DNA of 64,000 bases, from assembly GCA_000091205.1 (NCBI GenBank), contig AP006489.2; one strand, given 5' to 3'. The notes below the pieces were generated by a model that had not been told where the DNA came from, made no database searches, and saw only the letters and a list, made by a program, of their open reading frames with translations. The translations under genes and the position numbers were made by a program. The stretch comes from Cyanidioschyzon merolae (Eukaryota). Position 1 is the stretch's first letter, and every line of letters starts with the position of its first letter. Shown one piece after another: positions 19,801 to 52,391 of this stretch.

Positions 19801-20385
19801 ACGTACCAGATCGATCGATGAATCGCTGCGCGGGAGGCGTCTGACCTGCAAGATCAATCGAAAAGCAACTTGTTCTGGATATTTATGTATAAATAGGATT
19901 TTACTGGATGATCCTGACGTACCAGATCGATCGATGAATCGCTGCGCGGGAGGCGTCTGACCTGCAAGATCAATAGGCAAGCAACTTGTTCTGGATATTT
20001 ATGTATAAATAGGATTTTACTGGATGATCCTGACGTTACGATCGATCGATGAATCGCTGTGCGGGAGGCGTCTGACCTGCAAGATCAATAGGAAAGCAAC
20101 TTGTTCTGGATATTTATGTATAAATAGGATTTTACTGGATGATCCTGACGTTACGATCGATCGATGAATCGCTGTGCGGGAGGCGTCTGACCTGCAAGAT
20201 CAATCGAAAAGCAACTTGTTCTGGATATTTATGTATAAATAGGATTTTACTGGATGATCCTGACGTTACGATCGATCGATGAATCGCTGTGCGGGAGGCG
20301 TCTGACCTGCAAGATCAATAGGCAAGCAACTTGTTCTGGATATTTATGTATAAATAGGATTTTACTGGATGATCCTGACGTTACG
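19801..20385. repeat. minisatellite: about 5 tandem units of 114-118 bp
   Basis: Unit 'acgt(t)ac(ca)gatcgatcgatgaatcgctg(c/t)gcgggaggcgtctgacctgcaagatcaat(c/a)g(a/g)aaagcaacttgttctggatatttatgtataaataggattttactggatgatcctg'. Units begin at 19801, 19919, 20033, 20148 and 20263. It lies between the 5' ends of the divergent USP and TrpRS genes. Confidence 0.9.
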
Positions 20386-21118: not shown

Positions 21119-22339
21119 TTGCTGGCTTCGACCTGGTTCTCGATGACAGAGAAACCAACAGGAACACCCTCTAGTGATGGATCTGTGGTGACACCCTGGC
21201 AAGTCACCGGTGCAGTCGACTACGACAGGCTCATCGCCACGTTCGGCACAACACCACTGACCAGCACACTCGTGGAGCGCGTGGAGCGACTCACTGGCAA
21301 GAAAGCCCACCACTTCCTCCGCAGAGGGATCTTCTTCTCCCATCGAGACCTGGATCAGCTTTTAGACGCATACGAAAACGGTCAGCGTTTCTACCTCTAC
21401 ACCGGTCGCGGTCCCTCGTCGGAGGCGCTCCACCTTGGACATTTGATCCCCTTCATCTTCACTAAGTATCTACAGGACGCGTTTCGAGTCCCGCTGGTCA
21501 TCCAGCTCACTGACGACGAAAAGTTCCTTTTTTCCAAACATGACGTAAGCTCACACCCGCTTGAAAGCTATATCCAACTCGGCCGTGAGAACTCCAAGGA
21601 TATCATAGCATGTGGTTTCGATCGCGAACGAACGTTTCTTTTCGCTGATTCCGACTATATCGGCTGGCTATACCCGAATGTAGTTCGTATTCAACGAGCA
21701 GTAAGCTTCAGCCAGGTGCGTGGCATTTTCGGTTTTCAACACTCGGATAACATTGGCAAAATCGCGTTTCCAGCAGTGCAGGCTGCCCCAGCGTTTAGCT
21801 CGTCGTTTCCGCACCTATTTCCCACGAAGCAGCAGATCCCATGCCTGATTCCATGCGCGGTAGACCAGGATCCTTACTTCCGGATGACGCGTGATGTGGC
21901 TCCACGACTTGGTTATCGGAAACCTGCGTTGATTCACAGCAAGTTCTTCCCGCCGCTCCAAGGGGCCGAAGGCAAAATGAGCGCCAGCGATCCGAATTCG
22001 GCGATCTTTCTCAGCGACTCTGCCGCCCAGATAAGAAAGAAAGTGAATAAATACGCATTCAGTGGCGGGCGCGACACCGTCGAGGAGCATCGGCTCTACG
22101 GAGGGGATTGTGCGCGTGACATTGCATTCCAGTATCTGTGTTTCTTCCTGGAGGATGATGACCGACTTGAAGATATTCGCGAGGCCTACTCTACCGGACG
22201 CATGCTTAGTGGAGAGATCAAAGCGGAGCTCGTGCGTTGTCTACAACCCATGCTTGCAGACTTGCAGGCAAGGCGGCAAGCGGTATCCAATGCGGATGTG
22301 GAAGAGTTTATGCGTATTCGACCGTTGATCGTTGAATAG
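21119..22339 (+). CDS. tryptophanyl-tRNA synthetase, cytoplasmic (eukaryotic) type
   Basis: '[44 protein letters not shown]' (HIGH motif as HLGH), '[15 protein letters not shown]', '[15 protein letters not shown]' (KMSKS-class motif). The true start may be MTEKPT (21143). Confidence 0.9.
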
Positions 22340-32235: not shown

Positions 32236-35200
32236 ATGCCGCCACGTAAGCGCAGGACAACTGAGCTTGAACGTTTGGGCGTGCACCTCGAGGAAAGCGT
32301 GTCGGACGCTGTACCCGTGCGACGTCAGGTGCGATCACGGACGACGGAACGTGTTCGCGGAGGCCGGCACGATGATGAAACAACGGAGCAGGTGCATTTG
32401 ACGGGGTCAGACACATCGGATACACAGAAGCAGCCAAAGCCTATGCCAGTTCAGCAGAAGCAGCCCAGAGCTGCCGTATTGCAGACGCCGAAAGAAACGC
32501 TTTCCGAGCAGCTTGATCGTGCGCTATCTCCGTTGCTCCCGTTTCTCTCTTGGCCTCTGCATGATTCGAAAGATTCTGAACTTGAAGATGCGCACTGGCA
32601 AGCCCAGCTGGAAGCCGCTGCGACCCAAACTGAGCATTTCGTGGAAGAGCTGGGAAAAGATGCGTCCCATGAATCAGGAATTGACGCAGCACTCGCCCAG
32701 GCGCTCTGGTGTCTCTATCTCGCGAGCGCTAGCTCTTTTGAAGCAGAACCCAAGCGCAGCGTCGTGACTTGGCCAGATGTCGCACGAACGCGGTGGACCC
32801 AGCTCCTGCGGCGCCTTCTGCATCGGAACTTGCTTAGCAAGGCGGTTCTCGTGCGTTGGCTCCCGCCTGAGAGCTGGCAACAAACCGGTTTGGTGAGCGA
32901 GCTCGACGAGCCGGCACAGTGGACGCGGTCAGTGCGGCGACTTCATACCCGAATACATTACACTCAACCAGTGTACCAGGTTTTCCGGGAACAGCCGCTA
33001 GGTTTTGCAAGTCTGCTCAGTGCTTTCACAATCTGGATGGAAAACGCAGATGCCTTTTCTACTGACACCAAACTAGACGCATCGAGCAACATGAAACCCG
33101 ATCACGCCCTAGATGCGATCGTTAACGAGCATCTATCGACTTTTCACATAGAAACAAACCGAGCATACGACTTGGGCATCCAAATGCTGATCGCTATCCA
33201 TGAATGGAAACTGCGGCAGCATCGAAAGGCTGCACTGCTCAACTCGGGGCCTGCGGCTGGCCCTGGAGCTGAACTGCCGCAGCCACGAACGCCAGAGGAG
33301 CAGCAGCAGCAGCAGCAACGGCACTCGCTGCCCGATTCCGGTGTCTGTATCCGTTGCCGGACGCTAGTCGAGATCGAACAGGCCTTGATCAACTGGCTAC
33401 GAGGTGTCCCGTCTCGTAACGCTGCGCAGCTCTTGGGGTTCCGGCTCCAGCAGCTGCAGTCCGCTGCGGCCTGTGTGACGTACCAAAAAGCGGTGCCCGA
33501 AGAGCGCCTACCGGAGGCAGTGTTTCTGGTGGCCGCACGTCTCATTCACGAGAGAATCGTCTCACTGGAACAGCTGTGGCCTCATGTGGTGAACGCGGAT
33601 TATGAGGACGCCGCCACCGTCGGAACTGACGCAACGCTAGCAACGAGTGGGCAGACATCGACAACCGCGTCGCCACCGCCAAAACGAAACACTGCTGCAG
33701 ATGCGCGTTCAGCGAGAGCAGCGCCCATAGACCCAGCGAGCGCTGTCCAAAGCAAGCCCTGGGATGAGCTGGGAGCCTTCATCACTGCCCAAACGAAAGC
33801 ACTTGCGCGCGTGCGCCTGGTTGAACGCGACTGCAGCAGAGAGCAGGCGTCAGCATCGGAGCGGGGTTCGCAGGCATCAGCGGCTACGGCCTCGCGCGAG
33901 ACAGACAACGCTACCAAAGCGGTCGACGCCGTCTACGATGCCCTGAGCATGCGAGGCATTCTTGCACCAATAGCTGGCGAACTTGCTCTCTTGGCTGCAC
34001 TGATCGACTATGATGAGTTGCATCTGGTCGAAACCTGGATCCAGCGTGTGTGGCTGGCAGACCTGACCGAGAACGCTACCCTTTGGCACTGCCGGCGGGA
34101 GCTTGTCTACGCAGCTGCTCCGCTTCGATATGCCCTGTTTGCCTACATCATGCGTCATATTAGTCAAGTTACGGGAAACGGATCCCGCGTCGTGATGGCG
34201 ACCGGCGCTGACGCTGCCGCGGCTGAGCCCAGCGACGAGAACAACCATGCCAACGACACCAGAGCACTGCTTCTTCGTGTTTGGCGCCTGCTCGGTGGTC
34301 ATCTCGTTCAGCGTCCGGAGCTTTTCAAGGCGATGTGGTCTATTGTGAGCAGTACGAGAGCAGTGAAGCGTGCTGATCCTGCTGTTGATGCGCATGAAGC
34401 ACAGGTAGATTCCACAGTATCCGCCTTCTGGGCGGGTGACGGAATTCTTCCTTGCTCGCCTCTACTTGCTGTGCTGTTCTCCCAGGGGAGCGCGGCGGTT
34501 CCAGGTTGGCTCTTCGGAGATGCTAACGCTGCACTTTCCTCGCTGCCCTATGCCTACCGTTATGCTTTGTACCTGAATGCCTGTGCGACCTGCGTGCGTC
34601 TTTCGAGCTCAGCTGAGCCACGTGCTTCCGTACTGATCCCGTTCTGGCATGCCCTGTACCGAAGCATGAGTCGACGTCTGCTACGTCGACTCGCCGGCGA
34701 TACGATTGGTTACATTGCCAAGTCGCTCGAGCCGATGCTCTACAGTGAACCGTGGGCTGTAGCGCGCATCATCCTGGACCAAGTTCAAAGCTACGATAAC
34801 CTCGTGGAGCCTGTTGTGGAGATGCTTATGTGGCTGTTGCGAGCTCGGACGGACCTCAGTTCCGCCTCAGACGGGGAGCGAGTGCATGCGCTCGCTTTCG
34901 CGCTCGATGTCTTCTTCGCGCTGTTCGTCGAGGAATTAGCGGGATCTGCACAGAACGGAACCCAAAGACCTCGCATTCGCTCTCAAGAAAGCGGTGGCAG
35001 TCTGGCGAGCTGGTTCCTCAACACCATTGAACTCGTTGTACAGCTCAGTCGGCGCATGGTAGAGCACCTTGCTGCACTTTTGCCGTCAAATGAGAACGAG
35101 ATCCATGGCTACGAAAGCGTCGATCCGGCGTTCACTCTGCAGCAAGTGCTGCAGGACTGCTGGCGTGCGCTCTTACAGCTGGCTGAAAGGCGCATCATCC

Positions 35201-37254
35201 GGGGTGATTACGCATTCTACGCGCTCATTCAGCGAGCCCTGGAATGCATGGGCGGCATTCAACCATGGGATGATGAGATGCTCAACAACAGTGGTCTAGA
35301 ATCGCTGGCAAGGCCAGCGATTGAGCAGCCAACAAACGCCGAGACATGGCGTTTCCTGCAGACGGTGTTTGAGCCAGAGACGGCAGACGCAAGCTCCCCT
35401 ACGCTTGCGCTGCTCGTGGCACTCGACGCTGCCAAACATGAGTTGCTCCAGGAACTCGCGGCTGGCAAGTGGCCGCTGCGGACGGCTACCGTGCTTCTAG
35501 ATGCCCTGCATGCGACTTTTCTCCAACTGGCCAGTTTCGGAGAGAGGCAGCGCGCGGCCTCGACAACGGTGACACAGTTGTCTAGTACAGAATCTGCATC
35601 GACCTGTTCCGCTGAACGTTCATCATCTGCACCGAGTCTGGGTCTCGAGAAAATCGGCGACTCACTTTGCATGGAAAGTTTCCTGTGCTTGTGTCGCATG
35701 TGGGGATACAGTCGTCCGTCGGCACCACTGGCCGAAACATCTCGAGTCGACGTGCTTGAGCGGCGGCTTGGCGTTATGATAGCTGAAGCCGACACTCACC
35801 ATCAAGATCGCTTGCGCAAAGCCGGGGTCGCGAGCTTTGCCGAGCTCGTCTCGCTTGAATGGCTTCACGCTTTCTGGCGCAATGAACAGCCGCCCGACGG
35901 CCCGAAGTCCTGCGCCTTGGGCACGCGACCGTTTGACGACATCGTCAACGCGGAGAACGACCCCGAGCAGCGGAATATGCGCATACAGATTGTTGCCGAG
36001 TTTCTCCTCGAGCGCTGCTTCCTGCCGTGGGTCCTGATGAAGCCAGCTGCCTACAACAGTGCCATTGCGTGGATAGAGTTGCTTGCGCAGGATCCAAATC
36101 CGACGCCCTTCAATGTGCTGCTCCTGCTTACACTTCTTTTCAAGACAGCTTTTCTGCAGATCGTGGGTATGACCCGCCTAGAGTGCATTCGCCTCGCTCG
36201 CTTCGTGCGTCAGGCGCTGCGTCTCACGGATCGATGGCTTCGATACGGACCCGATGCGTGGCAAAGATATCGCTGTTCCAGGGTGACTTTTCAGGGGCGT
36301 GGCGGTACTCCGTGTCAATGGGCGCAGTACGTCCTCTGGCACGGAATCATGCGCGAAAAGATGCTCAACACAGTCTGTGAAGCGCTGGAGAAGCTGCCCG
36401 AGTCGCTGGTTCACGATCCCTCAATGCAGGACGCTAACGCGGGGTCGCCGCTCCTGTCCACGACGACGGCAAGCGCACCAGGCCCCCAGGATGCGCCATC
36501 CCGAACCGATTCGTTGGAAGAGCACCGCCACATGACGCTGGGCAATATGTTGCGGGCGTTGAACGTTATGGTAGAAGAGTTCCCGTCGCGTAACCAGACT
36601 GCTTCTGAACGTATGGAAAAGGCACTAACCAAACTAATCGAGCACGAGCAGAACGCGACCGAGGATCAACAGCACACCGATATCCTGACGCTCGCAACAA
36701 GCTACCTGGGCCACCTCCGCAGTCGTCAGCGTTGCGCCGCGGCTCGCCAGCGGGCAACAGCGCCACCCGCAGCGAGCAGTGTACCGGCCACGTCCCGTAT
36801 GGGATCCAAGGAGCGCGCCACAAACGGCGCGCTCATCGAGAAAGCGTCGTCCAAGCACCTAGATGTGTCCACAGAGGCTGCGGCCGCTACGCATCAGCCG
36901 GACAGTCGTCACAAGACAGCGCCCGATCACCAAACCGGGGCGGCAGCGCAGCGGCGCTCTGACGAGACGCCCCAGCGCAACCCTGATGGGCGTCGTCCAC
37001 AGCGCGGAGCCCGCACATCGAGGCCTTCGAGGGTGCGGCATTGGCGCGGCAGCGGCGCCCAAGCGCGGAGTCGAGTCACCGCACTAGCGCTCGCGGGAAC
37101 CAGCTGGACCCAAAGGACGTATCACAGGCTCGTGCTGCTGCGTCGACGGCATCACAGCGTCCACACATGCGCCAAGCGCGGTCGCAACCTAGTGGAGCTC
37201 CTTACGACACCGCTGAAGACAGCAGTAGTTGGAAAGGCTCTCGGAGGACCCTAG
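32236..37254 (+). CDS. THO complex subunit 2 (Tho2/THOC2)-like, 1672 aa
   Basis: Size matches. The block 'RRLAGDTIGYIAKSLEPMLYSEPWAVARIILDQVQSYDNLVEPVVEMLMWLL' parallels the THOC2 conserved core '...[39 protein letters not shown]'. The basic, low-complexity C-terminal tail is typical of THOC2. (CAG)n at about 33300 encodes poly-Q. Confidence 0.65.
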   Translation: MPPRKRRTTELERLGVHLEESVSDAVPVRRQVRSRTTERVRGGRHDDETTEQVHLTGSDTSDTQKQPKPMPVQQKQPRAAVLQTPKETLSEQLDRALSPLLPFLSWPLHDSKDSELEDAHWQAQLEAAATQTEHFVEELGKDASHESGIDAALAQALWCLYLASASSFEAEPKRSVVTWPDVARTRWTQLLRRLLHRNLLSKAVLVRWLPPESWQQTGLVSELDEPAQWTRSVRRLHTRIHYTQPVYQVFREQPLGFASLLSAFTIWMENADAFSTDTKLDASSNMKPDHALDAIVNEHLSTFHIETNRAYDLGIQMLIAIHEWKLRQHRKAALLNSGPAAGPGAELPQPRTPEEQQQQQQRHSLPDSGVCIRCRTLVEIEQALINWLRGVPSRNAAQLLGFRLQQLQSAAACVTYQKAVPEERLPEAVFLVAARLIHERIVSLEQLWPHVVNADYEDAATVGTDATLATSGQTSTTASPPPKRNTAADARSARAAPIDPASAVQSKPWDELGAFITAQTKALARVRLVERDCSREQASASERGSQASAATASRETDNATKAVDAVYDALSMRGILAPIAGELALLAALIDYDELHLVETWIQRVWLADLTENATLWHCRRELVYAAAPLRYALFAYIMRHISQVTGNGSRVVMATGADAAAAEPSDENNHANDTRALLLRVWRLLGGHLVQRPELFKAMWSIVSSTRAVKRADPAVDAHEAQVDSTVSAFWAGDGILPCSPLLAVLFSQGSAAVPGWLFGDANAALSSLPYAYRYALYLNACATCVRLSSSAEPRASVLIPFWHALYRSMSRRLLRRLAGDTIGYIAKSLEPMLYSEPWAVARIILDQVQSYDNLVEPVVEMLMWLLRARTDLSSASDGERVHALAFALDVFFALFVEELAGSAQNGTQRPRIRSQESGGSLASWFLNTIELVVQLSRRMVEHLAALLPSNENEIHGYESVDPAFTLQQVLQDCWRALLQLAERRIIRGDYAFYALIQRALECMGGIQPWDDEMLNNSGLESLARPAIEQPTNAETWRFLQTVFEPETADASSPTLALLVALDAAKHELLQELAAGKWPLRTATVLLDALHATFLQLASFGERQRAASTTVTQLSSTESASTCSAERSSSAPSLGLEKIGDSLCMESFLCLCRMWGYSRPSAPLAETSRVDVLERRLGVMIAEADTHHQDRLRKAGVASFAELVSLEWLHAFWRNEQPPDGPKSCALGTRPFDDIVNAENDPEQRNMRIQIVAEFLLERCFLPWVLMKPAAYNSAIAWIELLAQDPNPTPFNVLLLLTLLFKTAFLQIVGMTRLECIRLARFVRQALRLTDRWLRYGPDAWQRYRCSRVTFQGRGGTPCQWAQYVLWHGIMREKMLNTVCEALEKLPESLVHDPSMQDANAGSPLLSTTTASAPGPQDAPSRTDSLEEHRHMTLGNMLRALNVMVEEFPSRNQTASERMEKALTKLIEHEQNATEDQQHTDILTLATSYLGHLRSRQRCAAARQRATAPPAASSVPATSRMGSKERATNGALIEKASSKHLDVSTEAAAATHQPDSRHKTAPDHQTGAAAQRRSDETPQRNPDGRRPQRGARTSRPSRVRHWRGSGAQARSRVTALALAGTSWTQRTYHRLVLLRRRHHSVHTCAKRGRNLVELLTTPLKTAVVGKALGGP

Positions 37255-37461
37255 CGACGCAGCACACCGGCAACGAAGCCGAGCGTCACCAGCAAGCTCC
37301 TTCGAGCGAAACCTCAACGAGTCATCGAATGCAGGCATTCTTCCAACGCGCCCAAGCCCGTTAGGCTGCTCGAGACGTGCTGAAACCGAGGATTTATTGC
37401 CGACGTGAGAGAGAAAGTTCACCAGGACACGTGTCGATGCACGCATGCACGCATGCATGCC

Positions 37462-39345
37462 ACCAGGAAGCATCTGGAAGCGCATTGTTCAGCTGCATGT
37501 CAGTGATGCACATGCATAAACGGACGTATGCATACGTACGAACAGGAAGCATCTGGAAGCGCATTGTTCAGCTGCGTGTCAGTGATGCACGTGCATAAAC
37601 GGGCGTATGCATACGTACGAACAGGAAGCATCTGGAAGCGCATTGTTCAGCTGCGTGTCAGTGATGCACGTGCATAAACGGGCGTATGCATACGTACGAA
37701 CAGGAAGCATCTGGAAGCGCATTGTTCAGCTGCATGTCAGTGATGCACATGCATAAACGGACGTATGCATACGTACGAACAGGAAGCATCTGGAAGCGCA
37801 TTGTTCAGCTGCGTGTCAGTGATGCACATGCATAAACGGACGTATGCATACGTACGAACAGGAAGCATCTGGAAGCGCATTGTTCAGCTGCGTGTCAGTG
37901 ATGCACATGCATAAACGGACGTATGCATACGTACGAACAGGAAGCATCTGGAAGCGCATTGTTCAGCTGCGTGTCAGTGATGCACGTGCATAAACGGGCG
38001 TATGCATACGTACGAACAGGAAGCATCTGGAAGCGCATTGTTCAGCTGCGTGTCAGTGATGCACGTGCATAAACGGGCGTATGCATACGTACGAACAGGA
38101 AGCATCTGGAAGCGCATTGTTCAGCTGCGTGTCAGTGATGCACGTGCATAAACGGGCGTATGCATACGTACGAACAGGAAGCATCTGGAAGCGCATTGTT
38201 CAGCTGCGTGTCAGTGATGCACGTGCATAAACGGGCGTATGCATACGTACGAACAGGAAGCATCTGGAAGCGCATTGTTCAGCTGCATGTCAGTGATGCA
38301 CATGCATAAACGGACGTATGCATACGTACGAACAGGAAGCATCTGGAAGCGCATTGTTCAGCTGCGTGTCAGTGATGCACATGCATAAACGGACGTATGC
38401 ATACGTACGAACAGGAAGCATCTGGAAGCGCATTGTTCAGCTGCGTGTCAGTGATGCACATGCATAAACGGACGTATGCATACGTACGAACAGGAAGCAT
38501 CTGGAAGCGCATTGTTCAGCTGCGTGTCAGTGATGCACATGCATAAACGGGCGTATGCATACGTACGAACAGGAAGCATCTGGAAGCGCATTGTTCAGCT
38601 GCGTGTCAGTGATGCACATGCATAAACGGGCGTATGCATACGTACGAACAGGAAGCATCTGGAAGCGCATTGTTCAGCTGCGTGTCAGTGATGCACGTGC
38701 ATAAACGGGCGTATGCATACGTACGAACAGGAAGCATCTGGAAGCGCATTGTTCAGCTGCGTGTCAGTGATGCACGTGCATAAACGGGCGTATGCATACG
38801 TACGAACAGGAAGCATCTGGAAGCGCATTGTTCAGCTGCGTGTCAGTGATGCACGTGCATAAACGGGCGTATGCATACGTACGAACAGGAAGCATCTGGA
38901 AGCGCATTGTTCAGCTGCATGTCAGTGATGCACATGCATAAACGGACGTATGCATACGTACGAACAGGAAGCATCTGGAAGCGCATTGTTCAGCTGCGTG
39001 TCAGTGATGCACATGCATAAACGGACGTATGCATACGTACGAACAGGAAGCATCTGGAAGCGCATTGTTCAGCTGCGTGTCAGTGATGCACATGCATAAA
39101 CGGGCGTATGCATACGTACGAACAGGAAGCATCTGGAAGCGCATTGTTCAGCTGCATGTCAGTGATGCACATGCATAAACGGACGTATGCATACGTACGA
39201 ACAGGAAGCATCTGGAAGCGCATTGTTCAGCTGCGTGTCAGTGATGCACATGCATAAACGGACGTATGCATACGTACGACCAGGAAGCATCTGGAAGCGC
39301 ATTGTTCAGCTGCGTGTCAGTGATGCACATGCATAAACGGACGTC
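37462..39345. repeat. 79-bp tandem satellite, about 24 units
   Basis: Unit 'gaacaggaagcatctggaagcgcattgttcagctgc(a/g)tgtcagtgatgcac(a/g)tgcataaacgg(a/g)cgtatgcatacgtac'. The period of 79 was measured between 37541 and 37620. Three SNP positions define unit types that recur in blocks, giving a higher-order structure. It occupies the gap between the convergent THOC2 and COPB1 3' ends. Confidence 0.95.
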
Positions 39346-39567
39346 AAGTTCCCAAAGCAAGCTCTCATCAATAAACAGACGCACAAGAGGGCTTGGCGCA
39401 AGTGCCTCAATGTTGCCGATACCAGCGTTGGCAGTTGGGGCAGGTGCCGGCATCCCGCACTTTGGATGCGCCCAGCGTTTCACGTCCAACGCGAGCTGTG
39501 CGATCGCGAGCACGAGAAGGCTTCAAGTGTCCATTACTAGGCGAGATGCCGTATTAAGATGCATACT

Positions 39568-42500
39568 TTAGACCATGGCGTCAACAAGCGACGCGGTTTG
39601 GCCAAGTCGCTCACCAAGCGACAAGGCAAGCCCCTGGGTCTTGCTCCGGATCCGAACCGTGCCCTGGATCGTGCCATCTGCAAGGCGCTCTGCGCTGAGA
39701 TTCGCCAGCACATGCTCGCCAAAGACACTCGTTGCGTACAGGTTTGCGGCCAAAAAACCGCTCTTGTTGTTCGCATGGCGCGGGCTCTGACAACGCATGT
39801 GCAACGTCTCGGAAACGAGCGCAAGTACTGCGTCGAGGCTACCCAGCCGGGAACGGATCGTCACCTTATTCTCCCATTCAAACTCTTCCCACATACTGCA
39901 AAATAGAGCCTCGTTGATTTCGCTTGGTTGCAGGTACTCGATGACATCGAGATGGATTTCGTGCAGCGCTATCACACAACCGGAACCGTCTTCAACGCCG
40001 CTGTTTGCCGCTGAACGTCCATAGTCGAATACGAGATTGCCGAATATCACTCCCGTATCCGTCGACGACACTTTTAGTGCCACACGTATTTGTTTGGACT
40101 CGTGTGGCCCCAGGACCAGCGGACTCGGTCGCTCGCACAGTCGCAAATCGCCCAGCGTAAATAACTCGACGCATACGTTCTGCAACAGGTGCTCCGTTTG
40201 GTTCAGCAACCACAGGTCTAGGAGGATGTCGAACTGGTGCATGGTGATCTGTGCTTCCACGTAGACGGGATCGCTGAGCCCCGACAGCGCATGCAGGTGG
40301 CGCAGATGCAGGTCGCGCAGCGCGGCGCGACGTCTCTGGTCACCGCACGCCGCGAGTTCGATGTCGTCCACGTTCGGGTCTGTAGCGGGAACGACAGCGG
40401 CCGGTGTACCAGAACGGCCAAGCGCACCGATACTCGTAGCAAATTGCGCTCGTTGGCCTCGGTTCATCGCCATACTGCTAGCACGTCGCGCTTGGAGCAG
40501 TCGGAAATCAACGAGCGCCTCCACGGGGAGCTGCTCATCGAGGGCGCGCGCTTTGGCTTTAGCATCCTCGGAGGCGCGGTGGCGTTTCAGCATTTCACAA
40601 AATGCCAGATGAGAGCTCTCCAACCAAACGTGGTACGTGAGTGCATCGAGGCTGCCTTGCATGGCCTGAAGTAGCACCTGGAGGCATGATTGGATCCGCT
40701 GTGCTGTGTCCTCGTCGAGACGGGTGACGGTCTCCGCGTGCAGCCGATCCCGCCCGAGACGCAGCAGCGACGCGCCCAACAACAGCGCATAAGCCATCGC
40801 GCGGCGGCAGACCGCCGGGGTGCAATGCAGATCGGCGGCTTCCGACCTCACCTGACTGAGGCGCAGGGCGAGTTTCGTCAGCGCTGTCATAACAGAAACC
40901 CAAAGGAAGTGATCACCCTGCAACAACATGCGACGTAGTGCAGGCGTCGAGAGCGCATCCGCATCACGGAGCGTTACATAGCTACTGTCGCCGAGACTTA
41001 GCTCGCTGCCTTGAAACGCGTCCGCAGTCTCGGTTGCGTACGTTCCATCGGGGAGCACGCGCGGCCGCGACGACGTATTCGTCACCTTTTTGGAGCTGAT
41101 TGCTGTGCTGCTCATCGACGCCGACGCGCTCGTGGGCGTGGCTGACCATGCCCTATCCGCCAATTCTATGGGAGGCACCGCCATTTGCGAGTCCTCATGC
41201 TCAAGTTCAGTGGGAGCCAGCGCCTTGTCGCTGCCCGAACCTGTCAACGGCAGATGACCGATCTGCTGCGAAATAGCCGCAAACGCCTCCATGGCTTCGC
41301 TCGGCTTCGCACAAAACTCACAAAGTGTCCAAAGTACTCCACGAAAAACGCGGACAGCGCGAATCAGAGGTAGTGCAACCAGCAAATGCCGCAGCACGGG
41401 TTCGCGCATTTCCACATAGCGCTCACCGAGCTCTCGCAGAAACGAGACTACATCGAGTCCAGCGAGGCCAACTGCGTCTCCCATAAAATCCGTAAGTGTG
41501 CCCAGGATCTTCGCGGCAATTTCCGGATAATGAATTACGGACTGATGGATGGCTCGAATGAGCATCCGCCGATAGTTCAGCGCTGCATCGGAGGCAGAAT
41601 CCTCCGCGGAGATATTGTCCGCCAGTCGATGCAGCTCCTTGCGCAAAGCAGAGGCCACTTCCTCTACATTTCGAGGCCCGATCATGTCCATGACAAGATC
41701 AAGCACACGCTGCCGCACATGCAGGTCCGGGGCTGAGAGCGCTCGCAACAGTTCTGTGAGCTGTTCCTGAATGATCGGGGCGAAGTGTTGCCTCAGGTCT
41801 GTTATACGATCAAGCAAGATGAGCTTGACGTTATTGTCGCTCTGCGTCACAAGCAAGTTACAGTACGTCGATACGGCAGCACGAACAGCTGTAGGCGCTG
41901 CACTCAATCGGACCAGCACCTGCGCTGCCTCGAAAGCTACAGATGCATTCGATGACTGTAGCAATGCGAAAATGAGCTTCACGAACGTGCCTCTCTCCGC
42001 CAGTTCATCTGTTCGAAAGCGGCGCACAAGTTCTAGAGCGGCAAGCTGCATAGGTTCACTCCATGAAGGCAGCTGCTCAGCATGCTGGAGAAGGTATTTT
42101 GCAGCCTGACGTTGATCCGCCTGAATCAATACCAGGAACGCGTTCCTTCGGCAATTCTGATCGTTTTCGTTTTCCAGATATTGTACGATGTGCTCAGCTG
42201 CGTCAGGTATGAGCTGCGGGAAACGTCGCTGTATCGCACCGATTGCCAGCAGTGCGTTACGGCGAACGTAAGCGTGACGGTGTTCGAGGTTTTGCCGAAT
42301 AGCCGGCACGAGTGGCTCCAGTAACTCCGCCTCATTCAGCTTACAACAAAGACGTAGCGCGCAACCCCGCGAGTACTCATTCGGATGAATAAGCTCGTTT
42401 CGCAGTAAATTGCAGACCAAGATCATCTCTGGCAGCATCTTGCCGTCACGACCAGTCTTATCAACGATCTCGAGATAAATGAAACACAACTTTCGAAGCT

Positions 42501-43215
42501 GATTATCCTCGTTCGGTAAGACATATCGAATGACCGCCATGAGAAGCGAGCCTTGCTGCGTCGCAGGGATTTCACCGTTCAGCTGCATGAGAATGAGTAC
42601 GCGTAGCGTTATGACCTTATCTGCGACGTCGGTGGACTCCAGCCCCTGACGCAGATCGTTCACCGTCCAAGCGGCACCTTGGGCAGCGAGCTTCCGGATT
42701 CGCGACAGCCCGAGCCCCAATACAGACTCCACCAGACCATCCTCCCCAGTGGCTCCGTCCTCGGAACCGTCACCAGACTCATAGCCGTTGCTTGCTGCAG
42801 CAGTTGCCGCTGCCGCCGCCTCGGCAGCTGCCGAGAGCACGTTTCCGACGAAGCGTTCCACCTTGGCTAACGCGCTGCCTTGGATGCCTCCTATTCTGCT
42901 GAGGGACTCGCGGGATAAGGCAGCAGCTGTGGATCGAGCAGGAAGTTTGGTAAGCGCTACTGGTACCCCAGGCAGGGCACCCGCTTCAGCAACGTTCGCA
43001 TCAGACGCGGTCGGACCTTCCAGCGTGCTCTCCATAGCGCTGCCACCGAGACGCCGCTCGCCCAAGCTTGAGCGCAACAGAATCGGTACACCCTTCTCAT
43101 AACTGATCAAGAGTGTGCATTGCTTCTCCAAAGCGGTCGTCATCGCAAGGACTTGCCCCAGCCAGTGGACGTCGCAGAGCGTCGCTGAACGGTGCGTACA
43201 GCTGCTGTCCAGCAC
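39568..43215 (-). CDS. COPB1: coatomer subunit beta (COPB1)
   Basis: 'ITLRVLILMQLNGEIPATQQGSLLMAVIRYVLPNEDNQLRKLCFIYLEIVDKTGRDGKMLPEMILVCNLLRNELIHPNEYSRGCALRLCCKLNEAELLEPLVPAIRQNLEHRHAYVRRNALLAI...LIPDAAEHI' aligns block by block with COPB1. The likely true start is MTTALEKQCTLL (about 43143; compare human MTAAENVCYTLI). A roughly 130-aa Ala/Ser/Gly-rich insertion follows the N-terminus. Confidence 0.85.
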   Translation of the reverse strand: MLDSSCTHRSATLCDVHWLGQVLAMTTALEKQCTLLISYEKGVPILLRSSLGERRLGGSAMESTLEGPTASDANVAEAGALPGVPVALTKLPARSTAAALSRESLSRIGGIQGSALAKVERFVGNVLSAAAEAAAAATAAASNGYESGDGSEDGATGEDGLVESVLGLGLSRIRKLAAQGAAWTVNDLRQGLESTDVADKVITLRVLILMQLNGEIPATQQGSLLMAVIRYVLPNEDNQLRKLCFIYLEIVDKTGRDGKMLPEMILVCNLLRNELIHPNEYSRGCALRLCCKLNEAELLEPLVPAIRQNLEHRHAYVRRNALLAIGAIQRRFPQLIPDAAEHIVQYLENENDQNCRRNAFLVLIQADQRQAAKYLLQHAEQLPSWSEPMQLAALELVRRFRTDELAERGTFVKLIFALLQSSNASVAFEAAQVLVRLSAAPTAVRAAVSTYCNLLVTQSDNNVKLILLDRITDLRQHFAPIIQEQLTELLRALSAPDLHVRQRVLDLVMDMIGPRNVEEVASALRKELHRLADNISAEDSASDAALNYRRMLIRAIHQSVIHYPEIAAKILGTLTDFMGDAVGLAGLDVVSFLRELGERYVEMREPVLRHLLVALPLIRAVRVFRGVLWTLCEFCAKPSEAMEAFAAISQQIGHLPLTGSGSDKALAPTELEHEDSQMAVPPIELADRAWSATPTSASASMSSTAISSKKVTNTSSRPRVLPDGTYATETADAFQGSELSLGDSSYVTLRDADALSTPALRRMLLQGDHFLWVSVMTALTKLALRLSQVRSEAADLHCTPAVCRRAMAYALLLGASLLRLGRDRLHAETVTRLDEDTAQRIQSCLQVLLQAMQGSLDALTYHVWLESSHLAFCEMLKRHRASEDAKAKARALDEQLPVEALVDFRLLQARRASSMAMNRGQRAQFATSIGALGRSGTPAAVVPATDPNVDDIELAACGDQRRRAALRDLHLRHLHALSGLSDPVYVEAQITMHQFDILLDLWLLNQTEHLLQNVCVELFTLGDLRLCERPSPLVLGPHESKQIRVALKVSSTDTGVIFGNLVFDYGRSAANSGVEDGSGCVIALHEIHLDVIEYLQPSEINEALFCSMWEEFEWENKVTIRSRLGSLDAVLALVSETLHMRCQSPRHANNKSGFLAANLYATSVFGEHVLANLSAERLADGTIQGTVRIRSKTQGLALSLGERLGQTASLVDAMV

Positions 43216-44097: not shown

Positions 44098-47000
44098 CTA
44101 GTTTGAGGAACGCCCTAAAGAAGGTGTCGTGCTTCCCGTTGGACTGGCAATCGTACGGAACGCCTCACGAGCACCCGAATACTTCCAATCAACCGCTTCA
44201 ATATTAAGCAGTACAGAGTCCGCATCAAATACAAATTTGATAGGAAGACCGGCCAGCATCAGGGTACGTCCAGTCATCCGCAGCAAATTGCCGGCGTACT
44301 GGTAGACGCCGCTGCGTGCAGCCTCTATCGCACCGGTCAGGGTATTCCGTTGCATCACACCAGGACACCACTCTTCTACTTCGTAGACTCGCTCGGCATC
44401 AAGTCCTCGCAGGCGTAAGCGAGGCTCCAGCCGCCCAACTTCGCGTATCTGGTTGAACGCGAACACTAACGCACGGTTGCGATCCGCGGAAACGTACATC
44501 CAGGCACAATTCTGGGTGCGAAACGGACACCACAGCCGATACATATCTCCAAACAGTACAACCGGAGCAACCTGCCGATACAATTCAATGTAGTGTCGAA
44601 TCTCTCGGAGCTCATCCTCAGACAGGACACGCGGGTCTAATTCATACCCAAAAGTACCGCACATGGCAACCAGAGATCGCGTCTTCATCGGAGCGCTCCG
44701 CAGCGTCTGGTGATTCGGCACGGTGGACACGTGCGCGGCAATTGCCTTGGCGGGTGCCCAGAGCGAGGTGCCCGCCTGGATCCGCATCCGACTCGACGCA
44801 TCCGTATTGTCGCTGGTCCATATCTGGGAGCTGTAGTACAGAAGGCCAGCATCGAAGCGGCCGCCGCCACCGGCACAAGTCTCGAAAAACACGTCAGGAA
44901 ACTGCTCCTGAATACGGCCCAGTACTTCGTAGAGCCCGAGAATATAGCGATGCGCAATCTCGCCTTGTCGTTCAGGCGGATGCACTGCGCTGTAGACTTC
45001 CGTCAGGAACCGATTATTATCCCATTTGATATAGCTGATTGCACACGAGCTTAGAATCGTGCTCATGGTGTCGACGAGCCAATCGCGAACTTCGCTGCGT
45101 GTCAGGTCGAGCACCAGCTGGTTGCGGCCCATGGTCTTGCCGCGACTTGGAATATGCAGCGCCCAGTCCGGGTGCGCCTTGAAAAGGTCCGATTCGACGG
45201 AGACCATCTCTGGCTCGACCCAGAGACCGACCTTGAGACCCGTGGCGGTCAGCTCGCGAACCAAACCATGCAGACCGAAAGGCAACTTGGTCGGGTTCGG
45301 GTACCAATCGCCCAGGCCGTCCGAGGTGTCGTTGCGTCGGCCAAACCAGCCGTCGTCAATGACGATCATCTCAATTCCAGCACGTTTCGCTACCTCTGCG
45401 ATCTTCAGTACGGACTCGTGCGAGAGCTGGAAATACAGCGCCTCCCAGGTATTGAGAAGCACCGGCGGGATGTATGTGCGGAACTGCGGCGGCTGCAGGC
45501 GATCCCGTATCAGCCGATGGTATCGACGACTCATCTCTCCGATGCCTTGCGCACTGTACGTAAGGATCACCTCTGGCGTGATGAATTCCTCATCAGGCTC
45601 GAGGTTCCAGTAGAAGCCCTGGGGATGAATGCCAATATTCAGGCGCGTACGCCCGGTCTCGCTCACCTCACACTCCACGAGAAAATTTCCCGAGTAGACG
45701 AGTAGCGCAGCGAACGCTTCACCGGTATCTTCGTTCGGCTCACCAGCAGAGATAATTGCGAACGGGTTGTGCTGGTGTGAAGAGCCACCGCGTGTGGAGC
45801 CGAACGAGGTCTGCCCGCTGCGCAGATGCCGTATCACCTGTTGGCGTTCTCGTGCCCAACTTCCGGATAACTGTGTCAAGTAGTAGTCGTCAGTTTCAAA
45901 GTCCAGCGTCGCTGACATCGCTCGGGTAATGATCACATTAGCGTCACCCTCGTTGCGAATGCGGCAATGACGAGTGATCACATCGTAATCATGCACAACA
46001 CAGTAGATGAGCTCCACCACCAAACCGGTGACGTTGTCGACCATTTCCACAATTAACGTCGTCGCTTCGTGGACGTCCTCGGTGAACACAGCTGGCATGT
46101 AATTGGGCATCGGAATTTTGCCGCGACGGATGCGGTGGCGACGATACGTGAAGGGCGACAACGTGGATCCATCCTCATAGATGACACCAATCGAGGGAAT
46201 GCGGTAGTCGCCAGTTCCGCTATCGGAGATTTCTAGCAGCTTCACGTTCTTGCTAATTGTCTCTTGATCCAACTTACCCCAGTTCACGACGGATGCTGTT
46301 GATTTCTGCCCCGAGTCCAGATCCAGCTCAGAAGCGGTCTGCATGAGCGATGGAGCTTGTTTGCCTCCGGCTGTGCTCTGCTGGACGCTCTGAGGTCCTT
46401 GTGGGCCCTCCGCTGCGCTACCGCTCACCATTCGAGCGGGCGCCTCCTTGGGAGCGCCCATGCTGTCGCGTTTCCCGCGATTCCAGTCGAGACGCGGACT
46501 GGTTATCACTGATGCCAACGAGTGCTCTGATCGCGACAAGTCCAGCGCAGGCGTCGAGGCGAACCGATGTAGCGAACCAGGTGCCGTGCTGCTCGCACGA
46601 TCCGAGGCATCAACAAGCTCTCCGCCTGCCTCACCACTGGGTAAAATTGCTTGTGGCTGCGTTTCTGTCACCTTCTCCGATGCGGATTGACTGAGCGATT
46701 TCCCGCCGCGCTGCAGAGCGCGCTCCAAAACATCATCAGAGAGGTCCTTGTCCAGATCGACAGCCGAGCCTTTCATGCGTTCCATGTGCCATAATCGCCA
46801 GGAGGCGTTTTCGAGACGACGCGGTCTGCCGGTGTTCTCAAAGTCACCAGAGACCGCAGAATCATTCTTCGCGCGTGTGAATAAACGCCATTTCTGCTGC
46901 AGTTCTTGTTCAGAGGAAAACTGCAATTCATCGAGACCCATGGTTTGCATGATGTTCGGCTCCACGGCTGACGGAACAATGCCATGGGGATCAAATGGTC

Positions 47001-47406
47001 CTGGAACGTTGCCCAGGCTCAGGTATGTCAAGTTGTCATCCGTTTGGAGCCATGATCCATAGTAGAGATGTTCCAAATTCCGATTATCGTCGATTCGGAA
47101 AGCATACAACGTCTCGCGGGAGTAGAGCCGAAATATGCGTGTCGACGGATCGAAATACACACCAGGCCGGGCTAGCAACGATTGTTGGCTTGGTCGGAGT
47201 GCTGCTTCTGCTCCTGCGAGGCTGGACTTGCCATCCATACGTCCAATGGTGAACATTCCGGTGTTAGCGTTGGAACTCGACTCCAAAGCCAGATGCGAGA
47301 GCGCGGCGCCAACGAGGGCGGGATTGTTCCCCTGATCACCCGCTTGTTGATACACGCTCGATCCAGCAGCTTCGAGCATGCCAGCACGTTCTTTGACCTC
47401 GACCAT
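44098..47406 (-). CDS. GH36 alpha-galactosidase (melibiase) with a roughly 400-aa low-complexity N-terminal extension carrying a 'RLENASWRLW' module
   Basis: GH36 N-domain 'YRIPSIGVIYEDGS...TQLSGSWARERQ'. Catalytic (beta/alpha)8 'GIEMIVIDDGWFGRRND..GLGDWYPNPTKLPFGLHGLVRELTATGLKVGLWVEPEMVSVESDLFKAHPDWAL', 'YIKWDNNR', 'ETCAGGGGRFD'. N-terminal region '..QQKWRLFTRAKND....RRLENASWRLWHMERM'. Confidence 0.8.
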   Translation of the reverse strand: MVEVKERAGMLEAAGSSVYQQAGDQGNNPALVGAALSHLALESSSNANTGMFTIGRMDGKSSLAGAEAALRPSQQSLLARPGVYFDPSTRIFRLYSRETLYAFRIDDNRNLEHLYYGSWLQTDDNLTYLSLGNVPGPFDPHGIVPSAVEPNIMQTMGLDELQFSSEQELQQKWRLFTRAKNDSAVSGDFENTGRPRRLENASWRLWHMERMKGSAVDLDKDLSDDVLERALQRGGKSLSQSASEKVTETQPQAILPSGEAGGELVDASDRASSTAPGSLHRFASTPALDLSRSEHSLASVITSPRLDWNRGKRDSMGAPKEAPARMVSGSAAEGPQGPQSVQQSTAGGKQAPSLMQTASELDLDSGQKSTASVVNWGKLDQETISKNVKLLEISDSGTGDYRIPSIGVIYEDGSTLSPFTYRRHRIRRGKIPMPNYMPAVFTEDVHEATTLIVEMVDNVTGLVVELIYCVVHDYDVITRHCRIRNEGDANVIITRAMSATLDFETDDYYLTQLSGSWARERQQVIRHLRSGQTSFGSTRGGSSHQHNPFAIISAGEPNEDTGEAFAALLVYSGNFLVECEVSETGRTRLNIGIHPQGFYWNLEPDEEFITPEVILTYSAQGIGEMSRRYHRLIRDRLQPPQFRTYIPPVLLNTWEALYFQLSHESVLKIAEVAKRAGIEMIVIDDGWFGRRNDTSDGLGDWYPNPTKLPFGLHGLVRELTATGLKVGLWVEPEMVSVESDLFKAHPDWALHIPSRGKTMGRNQLVLDLTRSEVRDWLVDTMSTILSSCAISYIKWDNNRFLTEVYSAVHPPERQGEIAHRYILGLYEVLGRIQEQFPDVFFETCAGGGGRFDAGLLYYSSQIWTSDNTDASSRMRIQAGTSLWAPAKAIAAHVSTVPNHQTLRSAPMKTRSLVAMCGTFGYELDPRVLSEDELREIRHYIELYRQVAPVVLFGDMYRLWCPFRTQNCAWMYVSADRNRALVFAFNQIREVGRLEPRLRLRGLDAERVYEVEEWCPGVMQRNTLTGAIEAARSGVYQYAGNLLRMTGRTLMLAGLPIKFVFDADSVLLNIEAVDWKYSGAREAFRTIASPTGSTTPSLGRSSN

Positions 47407-50465: not shown

Positions 50466-52391
50466 TTGTTGTGTGTTGCTGACTCTCGTCCAACGACTTC
50501 GTGCACCATGGAGGCAACGTTCACCCCACTTCTTTCCAAAGTATCAGGAAACCCTACCTCGCCCTCGAGTTCATCGACAGATGATCTCCCTGCGGGAGTT
50601 CTTCCCTATGAAGACTTCGACTTTGCGCCGTACCTTCAAGAGGTGAAGACGGAGGAGGATCTGCGGAAGACGTGGCGCGTATTCACCAAAATGAAGGATG
50701 TGCTTGAGACAGGGCGAAGGCTCGAGAACTTTTCTTGGCGCTTGTGGTTTGCGAAGCGTAGCCAGGGCGAGACGCTGGACGAAGAGGAGCTTGTTAAGGA
50801 TCTCACCCAACTCGAGAAGTATGACCTTGACTTGCAGCGCGATCTCCAGCGCATGCGCCAATCGACGGAAGGTGTGCTGACAAATATTTTCACCGATCAG
50901 GAGAAGAAACGTTTCGAGGAACAAGAGCGTCGGGAGCAGCTTCGTCTGCTTCTAGAGCACCTGGAACGTCTGAAAGCCATCAAGGAGGAACACAGTTTGC
51001 CGGACGATGCGCTGGATAAAATTTTGAACCTTGTTGACGACGCTTTTGGGGAAATGGCTGATGCGGCGGCTGCTGCCCAGCAGCAGCAACAACAGCAGAT
51101 CTCCCTGGACAGCAAAGCGCCCCGCGTCGTTCGCCTTCCGCGCTCTTACGCCGACGTGCTCGAGACCCTGGAGCGCATTCGAGCGGAGCTGGCGCTCATT
51201 CCGTCGTGCGTGGCGTTTGGTCACTCGTTGGAGCGCAATGGAGCCAATAACTTCCTGCTCTACCTCTTGCGAGAGCTTGTGGATAGTTTCATATTTACAC
51301 TAGTTGTACCAAAGGACGGCCCAATGCGTGAGGACTTCGAAGCGCTCGGGTGCCGTGTTGAGCTGTTGGAGACGACGGCTGAGTCGTTTGCGGATCATGT
51401 CAACAAGCTGGTGTCGAGTCACTCATTTCTGATTGCCAATACAATCATGCGCGCAGAAGCTGTCATTGCGGCGGCGAAGCATGGCACACCTTCTATCTGG
51501 GTGATTCACGAGGCCTGGCCTCAGGATCAGTTTGATTACTACGCGAAGCAAGTATTTCAAATGGCTCACGTCGATGGTGACCTCATCCGCCAGGGATTTG
51601 CAACCGCTAGTCGTATCGTTTTCCCTGCCCACGTTCAGAAACAGTGTTACGCTGGATTATTCGAGCCGCATCGGTCTCAGGTGATCTACAACGGCATACC
51701 ATTGTCTGCCATCAATAGCTACCGCTCGACGCAGAATCGCGACCGGGTTCGAGCAGAGCTCGGCTACCAGCCGACTGATCGTCTGGTTGTCCACCTGGGA
51801 ACAATTTGCAAGCGGAAGGGCCAAATCTACACAGCACGTGCTTTCAGCCTACTGAGAAACGATCCGGAAATCCAGCAGTCAGGATACATGTGCAAGCTGC
51901 TCATGGTTGGAGCTCGTTTTATTCGTGACCATGAAATCGCCTATCAGCAGGAGATTAAGGCGGAACTCGAGGCTGCTGGCGCAATTCGCGATTGCACCAT
52001 CCTCGAAATTCAGAAGAATGTTTTGCCCTATTATTTGGCCGCTGATATTCTGGTCGTGCCATCCTTGAACGAGGTCCTGCCGCTCGTGGTGTGCGAAGCC
52101 ATGGCGTTTGAGCGACCAGTGGTGGCGAGTGCCATCGACGGCATCCCCGAGGCAATCTCAGATGGTGTCGAAGGTTTTCTGGTGCCACCGGCAGACGAGC
52201 AGAGCCTGTACGAACGGGTGAAACAACTCATTCTTGATGAGAATCTGCGGACGGTGATGGGCAAGAATGGGCGCAAGCGGGTTTTGGGCCAGTTCAGCTT
52301 CAGCGCGATGGCGAACAACTATCGCCAGGTTATTCAAGACGCTCTGAAGGACAAGCCCTCAGCGGCCGCTGCGGCCTTGGAGGCAGCGTAA
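50466..52391 (+). CDS. GT4-family (glycosyl transferase group 1) glycosyltransferase with an N-terminal extension carrying 'RLENFSWRLW' and a coiled-coil segment
   Basis: C-terminal 'LVVHLGTICKRKGQ...YLAADILVVPSLNEVLPLVVCEAMAFERPVVASAIDGIPEAISDGVEGFLVPP' is the EX7E GT-B/GT4 signature. N-terminal 'EEDLRKTWRVFTKMKDVLETGRRLENFSWRLWFAKRS', then charged coiled coil 'EQERREQLRLLLEHLERLKAIKEE', then poly-Q. The start is possibly MEATFTPLL (about 50508). Confidence 0.75.
   Translation: MLCVADSRPTTSCTMEATFTPLLSKVSGNPTSPSSSSTDDLPAGVLPYEDFDFAPYLQEVKTEEDLRKTWRVFTKMKDVLETGRRLENFSWRLWFAKRSQGETLDEEELVKDLTQLEKYDLDLQRDLQRMRQSTEGVLTNIFTDQEKKRFEEQERREQLRLLLEHLERLKAIKEEHSLPDDALDKILNLVDDAFGEMADAAAAAQQQQQQQISLDSKAPRVVRLPRSYADVLETLERIRAELALIPSCVAFGHSLERNGANNFLLYLLRELVDSFIFTLVVPKDGPMREDFEALGCRVELLETTAESFADHVNKLVSSHSFLIANTIMRAEAVIAAAKHGTPSIWVIHEAWPQDQFDYYAKQVFQMAHVDGDLIRQGFATASRIVFPAHVQKQCYAGLFEPHRSQVIYNGIPLSAINSYRSTQNRDRVRAELGYQPTDRLVVHLGTICKRKGQIYTARAFSLLRNDPEIQQSGYMCKLLMVGARFIRDHEIAYQQEIKAELEAAGAIRDCTILEIQKNVLPYYLAADILVVPSLNEVLPLVVCEAMAFERPVVASAIDGIPEAISDGVEGFLVPPADEQSLYERVKQLILDENLRTVMGKNGRKRVLGQFSFSAMANNYRQVIQDALKDKPSAAAAALEAA

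Follow-up and report, generated by a model that had tools for sequence, protein, structure and literature searches.

Hypervariable minisatellites such as human MS32 (D1S8) are non-coding arrays of about 2 kb at a single locus, with a repeat unit of tens of bases in which a few variant positions define unit types; the types are interspersed in a structured order that differs near the array ends between individuals, and the arrays evolve by unequal exchange, slippage or conversion. [quoted passage not shown] It differs from MS32-type VNTRs in that it resides in a 16.5-Mb red-algal genome with very little repeated DNA, in that its unit is 50% GC and not G-rich, and in that it is not known to have a recombination-hotspot or germline context, its length polymorphism being putative. 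Higher-order repeat (HOR) satellites, such as primate alpha satellite, similarly consist of head-to-tail units in a recurring multi-unit pattern generated by amplification of blocks of more than one unit; in contrast to alpha satellite, the C. merolae array is about 1000-fold shorter, is confined to a single locus, contains units that differ by at most 4% (versus 20-40%) in blocks of no fixed length, and lies between active genes instead of heterochromatin.

Two further classes of sequence invite comparison. The regional centromeres of C. merolae (Kanesaki et al. 2015) are, like the spacer that holds the array, gene-free stretches of 2-3 kb with a GC content a few points under the genome mean, whereas they are reported to have no repeat pattern or shared sequence, and the GC content of the array is not locally extreme. 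Other intergenic repeats of the Cyanidiales (115 bp × 5; 45 bp × 2.9 in contig L014; 69 bp × 2.8 in contig L017) are also non-coding, have units of 45-115 bp and occur in compact, nearly intron-less genomes, one of them in the orthologous spacer; their sequences are unrelated to that of the 79-bp unit and their copies are far fewer, and no other array in the 64-kb window (the whole stretch of DNA that was analysed) comes close to the 79-bp one in size. We consider it highly probable that the array is a lineage-specific, single-locus, non-coding minisatellite (VNTR) between the THOC2 and COPB1 3′ ends, most likely a neutral one.

The window has long intron-free ORFs and a GC content of 54%, both in keeping with the C. 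merolae genome. The array and its surroundings comprise the following features:

32236-37254, plus strand: THOC2 (THO complex subunit 2) ORF, with Pfam domains THOC2_N, Tho2 and Thoc2
37430-37463, no strand: partial, degenerate copy of the unit with a tract of alternating purines and pyrimidines (CGTGTCGATGCACGCATGCACGCATGCATGCCAC), adjoining the array on its left side and located by local alignment
37464-39344, no strand: tandem array of the 79-bp unit (consensus CAGGAAGCATCTGGAAGCGCATTGTTCAGCTGCGTGTCAGTGATGCACATGCATAAACGGGCGTATGCATACGTACGAA), defined by TRF, unit decomposition, 33-mer matches and unit typing
39568-43215, minus strand: COPB1 (coatomer beta) ORF, with Pfam domains Adaptin_N, Coatamer_beta_C and Coatomer_b_Cpla

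TRF detected a single strong tandem array at 37464-39344 (period 79, 23.8 copies, score 3573, with 98% matches and no indels); its limits differ by no more than 2 bp from those (37462-39345) drawn in the sequence-only reading that preceded this analysis. A 33-mer of the unit occurs 24 times with an exact spacing of 79 bp, as against no occurrence in 100 shuffles, and it is absent from the window outside the array. With the Pfam assignments of the flanking genes, TRF and the 33-mer spacing bear out the initial description of a clean tandem array occupying the convergent THOC2/COPB1 spacer. The units are arranged head to tail without indels, and their period falls within the roughly 10-100 bp that is characteristic of minisatellites. 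The array is non-coding: 79 is not a multiple of 3, and a coding repeat was rejected, all six frames being closed within at most 49 codons.

After decomposition into units, 76 columns proved invariant and three (34, 49 and 61) biallelic for A/G, the latter in the contexts ctgc[a/g]tg, gcac[a/g]tg and acgg[a/g]cg exactly as first described. Apart from one extra substitution at 39280, in the penultimate unit, no two units differ at more than 3 of their 79 bases, all at the variable sites, and identity between units is 96-100%; the final unit is truncated to 64 bases. The 34 bases immediately to the left (37430-37463) align, with gaps, to unit columns 33-70, i.e. the 3′ half, with a score of 21 that 0.6% of mononucleotide shuffles reach, and from this alignment they are probably a decayed unit copy or a seed sequence.

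The three variable columns define four unit types, AAA (A, five units), GAA (C, seven units), GAG (D, three units) and GGG (B, nine units), that is, four of the eight possible haplotypes, where three types had been counted initially. Along the array the order is ABBACCBBBBACCDDBBBACDACC, which can be written as five blocks, each opening with an A-type unit (A BB, A CC BBBB, A CC DD BBB, A C D and A C C, starting at 37464, 37701, 38254, 38886 and 39123, respectively), with lengths of 3, 7, 8, 3 and 3 units. Within blocks the order is always A, C, D, B, and each reversal lands on A. A cyclic order of this strictness is reached with P ~1e-4 when units are permuted (200,000 permutations) and with P = 0.005 when whole runs are permuted. 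The four haplotypes form a linear chain of one-step mutations. Since the order of types is non-random, and recurrent identical mutation is implausible as its source, multi-unit blocks have presumably been duplicated: block duplication followed by single-unit gains and losses can account for the order, which implies that single-unit slippage alone is insufficient.

This agrees in part with the proposal, made from the sequence alone, of higher-order evolution beyond simple slippage: the non-random order (P ~1e-4) and the block duplication that it implies stand, but no fixed multi-unit period was found, TRF returning the 79-bp period alone, so a strict HOR satellite is not borne out. With no fixed period, units that differ at no more than 3 of 79 positions and a length (1.88 kb, at a single locus) below 2 kb, the array is a minisatellite variant-repeat map and not an HOR satellite. 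As to the variable columns themselves, all three are G/A on the plus strand and two are C[G/A]T, i.e. CpG versus CpA. The chain GGG to GAG to GAA to AAA would equal three C to T changes on the minus strand, the sites being too few for inference of strand-biased mutation. The degenerate copy in the left flank carries G at both alignable variable sites, which hints that GGG is ancestral.

The following course of events would generate the array. The starting point may have been the duplication of a short stretch of local sequence with many small palindromes and alternating purines and pyrimidines, a decayed copy of which would survive at the left array edge. Replication slippage and unequal exchange, sister-chromatid or homologous, would then have amplified the duplicate, always in exact 79-bp register. 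Stepwise G/A substitution at three sites would have produced the types GGG, GAG, GAA and AAA, and a block in A-C-D-B order would have been duplicated several times, subsequent single-unit gains and losses inside blocks leading to the present map. Ongoing exchange would keep the units nearly identical and reshuffle the array ends between strains. A sequence-specific function is not needed, and we infer that the array is most likely neutral DNA; the near-identity of the 24 units would also fit selection.

The genes on both sides define the setting. The COPB1 ORF matches BAM79575.1 of C. merolae 10D (1191 aa, annotated start at 43143) at 1191 of 1191 residues, and 223 bp separate its stop codon from the right array end. 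A GH36 alpha-galactosidase ORF comes next, identical to BAM79576.1 from the same strain. Exact-sequence look-up of the 1191-aa COPB1 and the 1672-aa THOC2 matched no record. At 37054-37055 (37048-37060), within THOC2, the window reads GG and all five environmental contigs that cover the site (L001, L007, L009, L011 and L019) read GGG. With the extra G, THOC2 stays open as far as the equivalent of 37364 (1708 aa, as called in L001 and L019) and does not end at 37254 (1672 aa), so that 100 bp would separate its stop from the array. From the contig comparison, GG may be either an error of the 10D reference or a strain-specific frameshift of the THOC2 tail; a reference error is plausible, since resequencing of 10D has revealed 81 indels against the reference that are common to two lines (PMC7291098).

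Several observations on these proteins stand apart from the array. COPB1 of the Cyanidiales is about 240 residues longer than that of other red algae and plants (1191-1219 versus about 950 aa); in the COPB1 of the window the Adaptin_N match begins at residue 187 and a low-complexity insert spans approximately residues 650-740. A short GATA_AreA-like domain (PF08550) is found N-terminally both in the GH36 alpha-galactosidase (44098-47406, minus strand) and in a group-1 glycosyltransferase (50466-52391, plus strand), and this pairing is kept in both related Cyanidiales loci.

The gene-free spacer measures 2.3 kb (51.5% GC) and would measure about 430 bp without the array, which thus enlarges the convergent spacer about five-fold. 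At 100-223 bp from two stop codons, the array probably lies in, or just past, the 3′ untranslated regions of both genes, and is therefore probably transcribed. A scan for hexamers placed one AATAAA beyond each end:

37393-37398, minus strand (the COPB1 strand): AATAAA hexamer (TTTATT on the plus strand), 66 bp past the left array end
39370-39375, plus strand (the THOC2 strand): AATAAA hexamer, 26 bp past the right array end

This setting allows a functional reading, in which the array would be a buffer or termination zone between two convergent constitutive genes, in or just past their 3′ UTRs, that would stop or slow polymerases or offer its palindromes (CAGCTG, CACGTG, ACGTATGCATACGT) to a dimeric factor, and so limit polymerase collision and antisense read-through. 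The short distances to the COPB1 stop and the likely THOC2 stop favour it, as do the E-box/G-box-like palindromes and the CATAAA hexamer (on the THOC2 strand) that every unit contains. AATAAA occurs 14 times in the 64 kb, counting both strands, and the two flanking copies are oriented as if the transcript of each gene crossed the array. No AATAAA is present within 700 nt downstream of the other genes of the window, however, which led us to reject it as a general poly(A) signal; since it is missing near other 3′ ends, the two flanking hexamers are not readable as poly(A) signals.

The palindromes, too, count against this reading, their excess being marginal. Within the array we counted atgcat 38 times, cgtacg 23 times and gtgatgcac 24 times; the longest palindromes are ACGTATGCATACGT (14 bp, in 11 units) and ATGCACGTGCAT (12 bp, in the nine GGG units), and the unit holds a 17-bp alternating purine-pyrimidine tract. 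Palindrome and purine-pyrimidine content exceed dinucleotide-preserving shuffles modestly (p 0.015-0.04). Hairpin stability shows no excess over such shuffles (z -0.1 to -1.5), either for single units folded as DNA or for trimers folded as RNA on either strand. The nested, hairpin-capable palindromes ascribed to each unit are thus present as atgcat, cgtacg and gtgatgcac, but gtgcac and tgcatgca, also listed at first, are absent from the array, and the folding is at the level of shuffled sequence. A hairpin- or cruciform-prone unit was rejected on these grounds. A binding-site motif common to other intergenic regions was rejected as well, unit 8-mers occurring outside the array at background frequency with no enrichment in the window.

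Comparison with relatives bears on both the functional reading and the origin of the array. In a protein search with COPB1 every cluster member shares at least 99.6% identity, and identity drops to 69% at the match that follows; the protein collection searched contains no lineage in between. The gene order glycosyltransferase, melibiase, COPB1, THOC2 (convergent with COPB1) and PCF11 is conserved in the relatives, and the 79-bp unit is absent from both related Cyanidiales loci (COPB1 69% and 52% identical). A Cyanidiococcus-like genome (GCA_041825655.1 and two metagenomes; COPB1 69% identical) has a spacer of 883 bp with an unrelated 45-bp repeat in 2.9 copies; that a tandem repeat is present in this orthologous spacer, too, would suit a buffer. 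In the farther relative (COPB1 52% identical), the COPB1 and THOC2 ORFs share 4 bp where their stops meet (L017, 10059-10062), an extreme convergent compaction with zero spacer, which means that no buffer is required at this gene pair. Since the relatives are without the unit and one has overlapping ORFs, the array is a lineage-specific expansion and a large spacer is dispensable here. The window has five convergent spacers, and the four others are free of arrays. We know of no factor that would act in the proposed manner, and a functional buffer appears unlikely.

The repeats of the relatives deserve a brief description. The 45-bp repeat lies at 12972-13103 of L014 (also in L013 and L015), and two further elements, a direct repeat of 29 bp and a run of (TG)n, are found in the same spacer. 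The COPB1-THOC2 spacer is thus repeat-prone in two lineages, an observation that with two TRF matches in 21.6 kb is statistically not compelling. Contig L017 starts within a perfect 69-bp × 2.8 tandem repeat (1-196), another assembly break at a minisatellite. Elsewhere in the window, a second non-coding minisatellite, unrelated to the 79-mer, is found at 19809-20385 (115-bp unit, 5.0 copies, 97% matches), in the spacer from which a ubiquitin C-terminal hydrolase (18209-19612, minus strand) and a class I Trp/Tyr-tRNA synthetase (21119-22339, plus strand) diverge. A 75-bp × 4 repeat (63418-63716, 79% matches) lies inside an ORF without a Pfam match (63087-63986) and presumably encodes a 25-residue protein repeat.

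Returning to the minisatellite, its confinement to one locus was also examined beyond the window. An exact scan of JGI metagenome contigs with a 24-mer unit core retrieved six contigs, all from this locus (THOC2 or COPB1 side) and 99.4-99.7% identical to the window, and two metagenomes gave exactly two contig ends each, as one locus predicts. The unit was therefore locally restricted, as had been suggested, with this locus as its sole site in the 64-kb window and the JGI metagenome contigs. Because the core is confined to this locus in these contigs, the array is a single-locus minisatellite, and a dispersed satellite was rejected.

The unit is found at identical junctions in at least nine independent assemblies of near-identical strains (contigs from the 24-mer scan and from exact-protein look-ups). 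The locus is spanned by three contigs, in which the array measures 143, 222 or 380 bp (1.8-4.8 units), and the remainder end inside the array or at its edge. Short-read assemblies thus collapse the array or break at it, as de Bruijn assemblers do with repeats that exceed the read length; this confirms the array and is uninformative on its copy number. The first unit next to the flank is A, B or C in the strain contigs and the last full unit A, B, C or D; these differences, which collapsed and possibly chimeric assembly paths may also affect, suggest array turnover.

The same data would fit a second alternative, in which the array is real and its length and internal map are products of assembly, the true copy number of 10D being grossly different. 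In the short-read assemblies examined, without exception, the array is reduced to 1.8-4.8 units or the contig ends within it; the longest exact internal repeat (485 bp) nears the useful length of a Sanger read; the reference has known errors, namely the 81 indels mentioned above; and a likely 1-bp error lies in THOC2, 400 bp from the array. Conversely, finishing of the C. merolae genome proceeded clone by clone, and the sequence was declared free of gaps (PMC1955436); the supplements of the genome paper give no gap coordinates. Since no exact repeat within the array exceeds 485 bp, every longer span is unique in its variants, which put the unit map within reach of Sanger reads but not of short reads; moreover, variants in an ordered and non-uniform pattern are unlike those of a collapsed or padded repeat. 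The earlier concern that the unit might be a collapsed artefact is met by the presence of the array in at least nine assemblies, but its direction is reversed: it is the short-read assemblies that collapse, and the window that has the long form. The copy number of 24 rests on the finished Sanger reference alone, and we regard a grossly wrong map as quite unlikely.

Improbable, too, is that the array acts as a functional chromatin element, either as the CENH3 centromere of chromosome 7, which would be the only satellite-type one, or as a protein-bound barrier between colliding transcription units whose mRNAs would share about 1.9 kb of complementary repeat in a host without RNAi. The centromeric version, in which the array would be, or lie within, the CENH3-bound region in a genome with short unique centromeres, is very improbable in its own right. 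One centromere region of 2-3 kb per chromosome has been described, with a GC content of 48.4% versus 55% and, in the quoted wording, "no other apparent pattern" (bioRxiv 10.1101/096016, citing Kanesaki 2015), and centromere-specific common sequences were not found in C. merolae (PMC3744952). The size and GC content of the spacer (2.3 kb, 51.5%) and the GC content of the array (50.3%) come near to this description, but it includes neither repeat pattern nor common sequence, and a 24-copy satellite would have drawn remark; the array is repetitive and stays above the reported mean. Its GC content corresponds to the 15th-28th percentile of the window, with several lower-GC stretches elsewhere, so a GC dip is not distinctive as a centromere mark. 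It also counts against this reading that a 64-kb window of a 584-kb chromosome has a prior of about 11% of containing the centromere.

A cluster of small non-coding RNA genes of about snoRNA size, or an siRNA source fed by convergent transcription, is extremely improbable: the 79-nt unit falls in the snoRNA size range, its GUGAUGC motif resembles a C box and convergent transcripts over the array would be complementary, but a D box in register is absent, the fold is neither stable nor distinctive, the unit is not conserved among related species, Rfam yielded nothing in the whole window at gathering thresholds and, up to E 10, just two chance miRNA-model matches in the array (18 bits versus a threshold of 90), and ARAGORN found no tRNA. 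A known RNA family or tRNA as the identity of the array was rejected on the Rfam and ARAGORN results. The sequence-only reading had also mentioned small RNAs, which are an unlikely product here because C. merolae, according to PMC11376382, is without RNA interference machinery (Dicer/Argonaute), and origin or nuclease-site clusters, to neither of which anything points.

The array is an ordinary but unusually large single-locus minisatellite in a repeat-poor genome. As a textbook minisatellite it carries little weight for general biology; it is conspicuous in a genome celebrated as nearly repeat-free. For work on C. merolae it offers a ready-made and probably hypervariable marker, both for the typing of strains and for tracking the sexual crosses described recently. 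For the Cyanidiales at large it is a trap for short-read assembly, at which each metagenome contig examined breaks or collapses. It is also a tractable site for the study of repeat turnover or of convergent transcription through a repeat, in a host that is haploid, performs efficient homologous recombination and has no RNAi.
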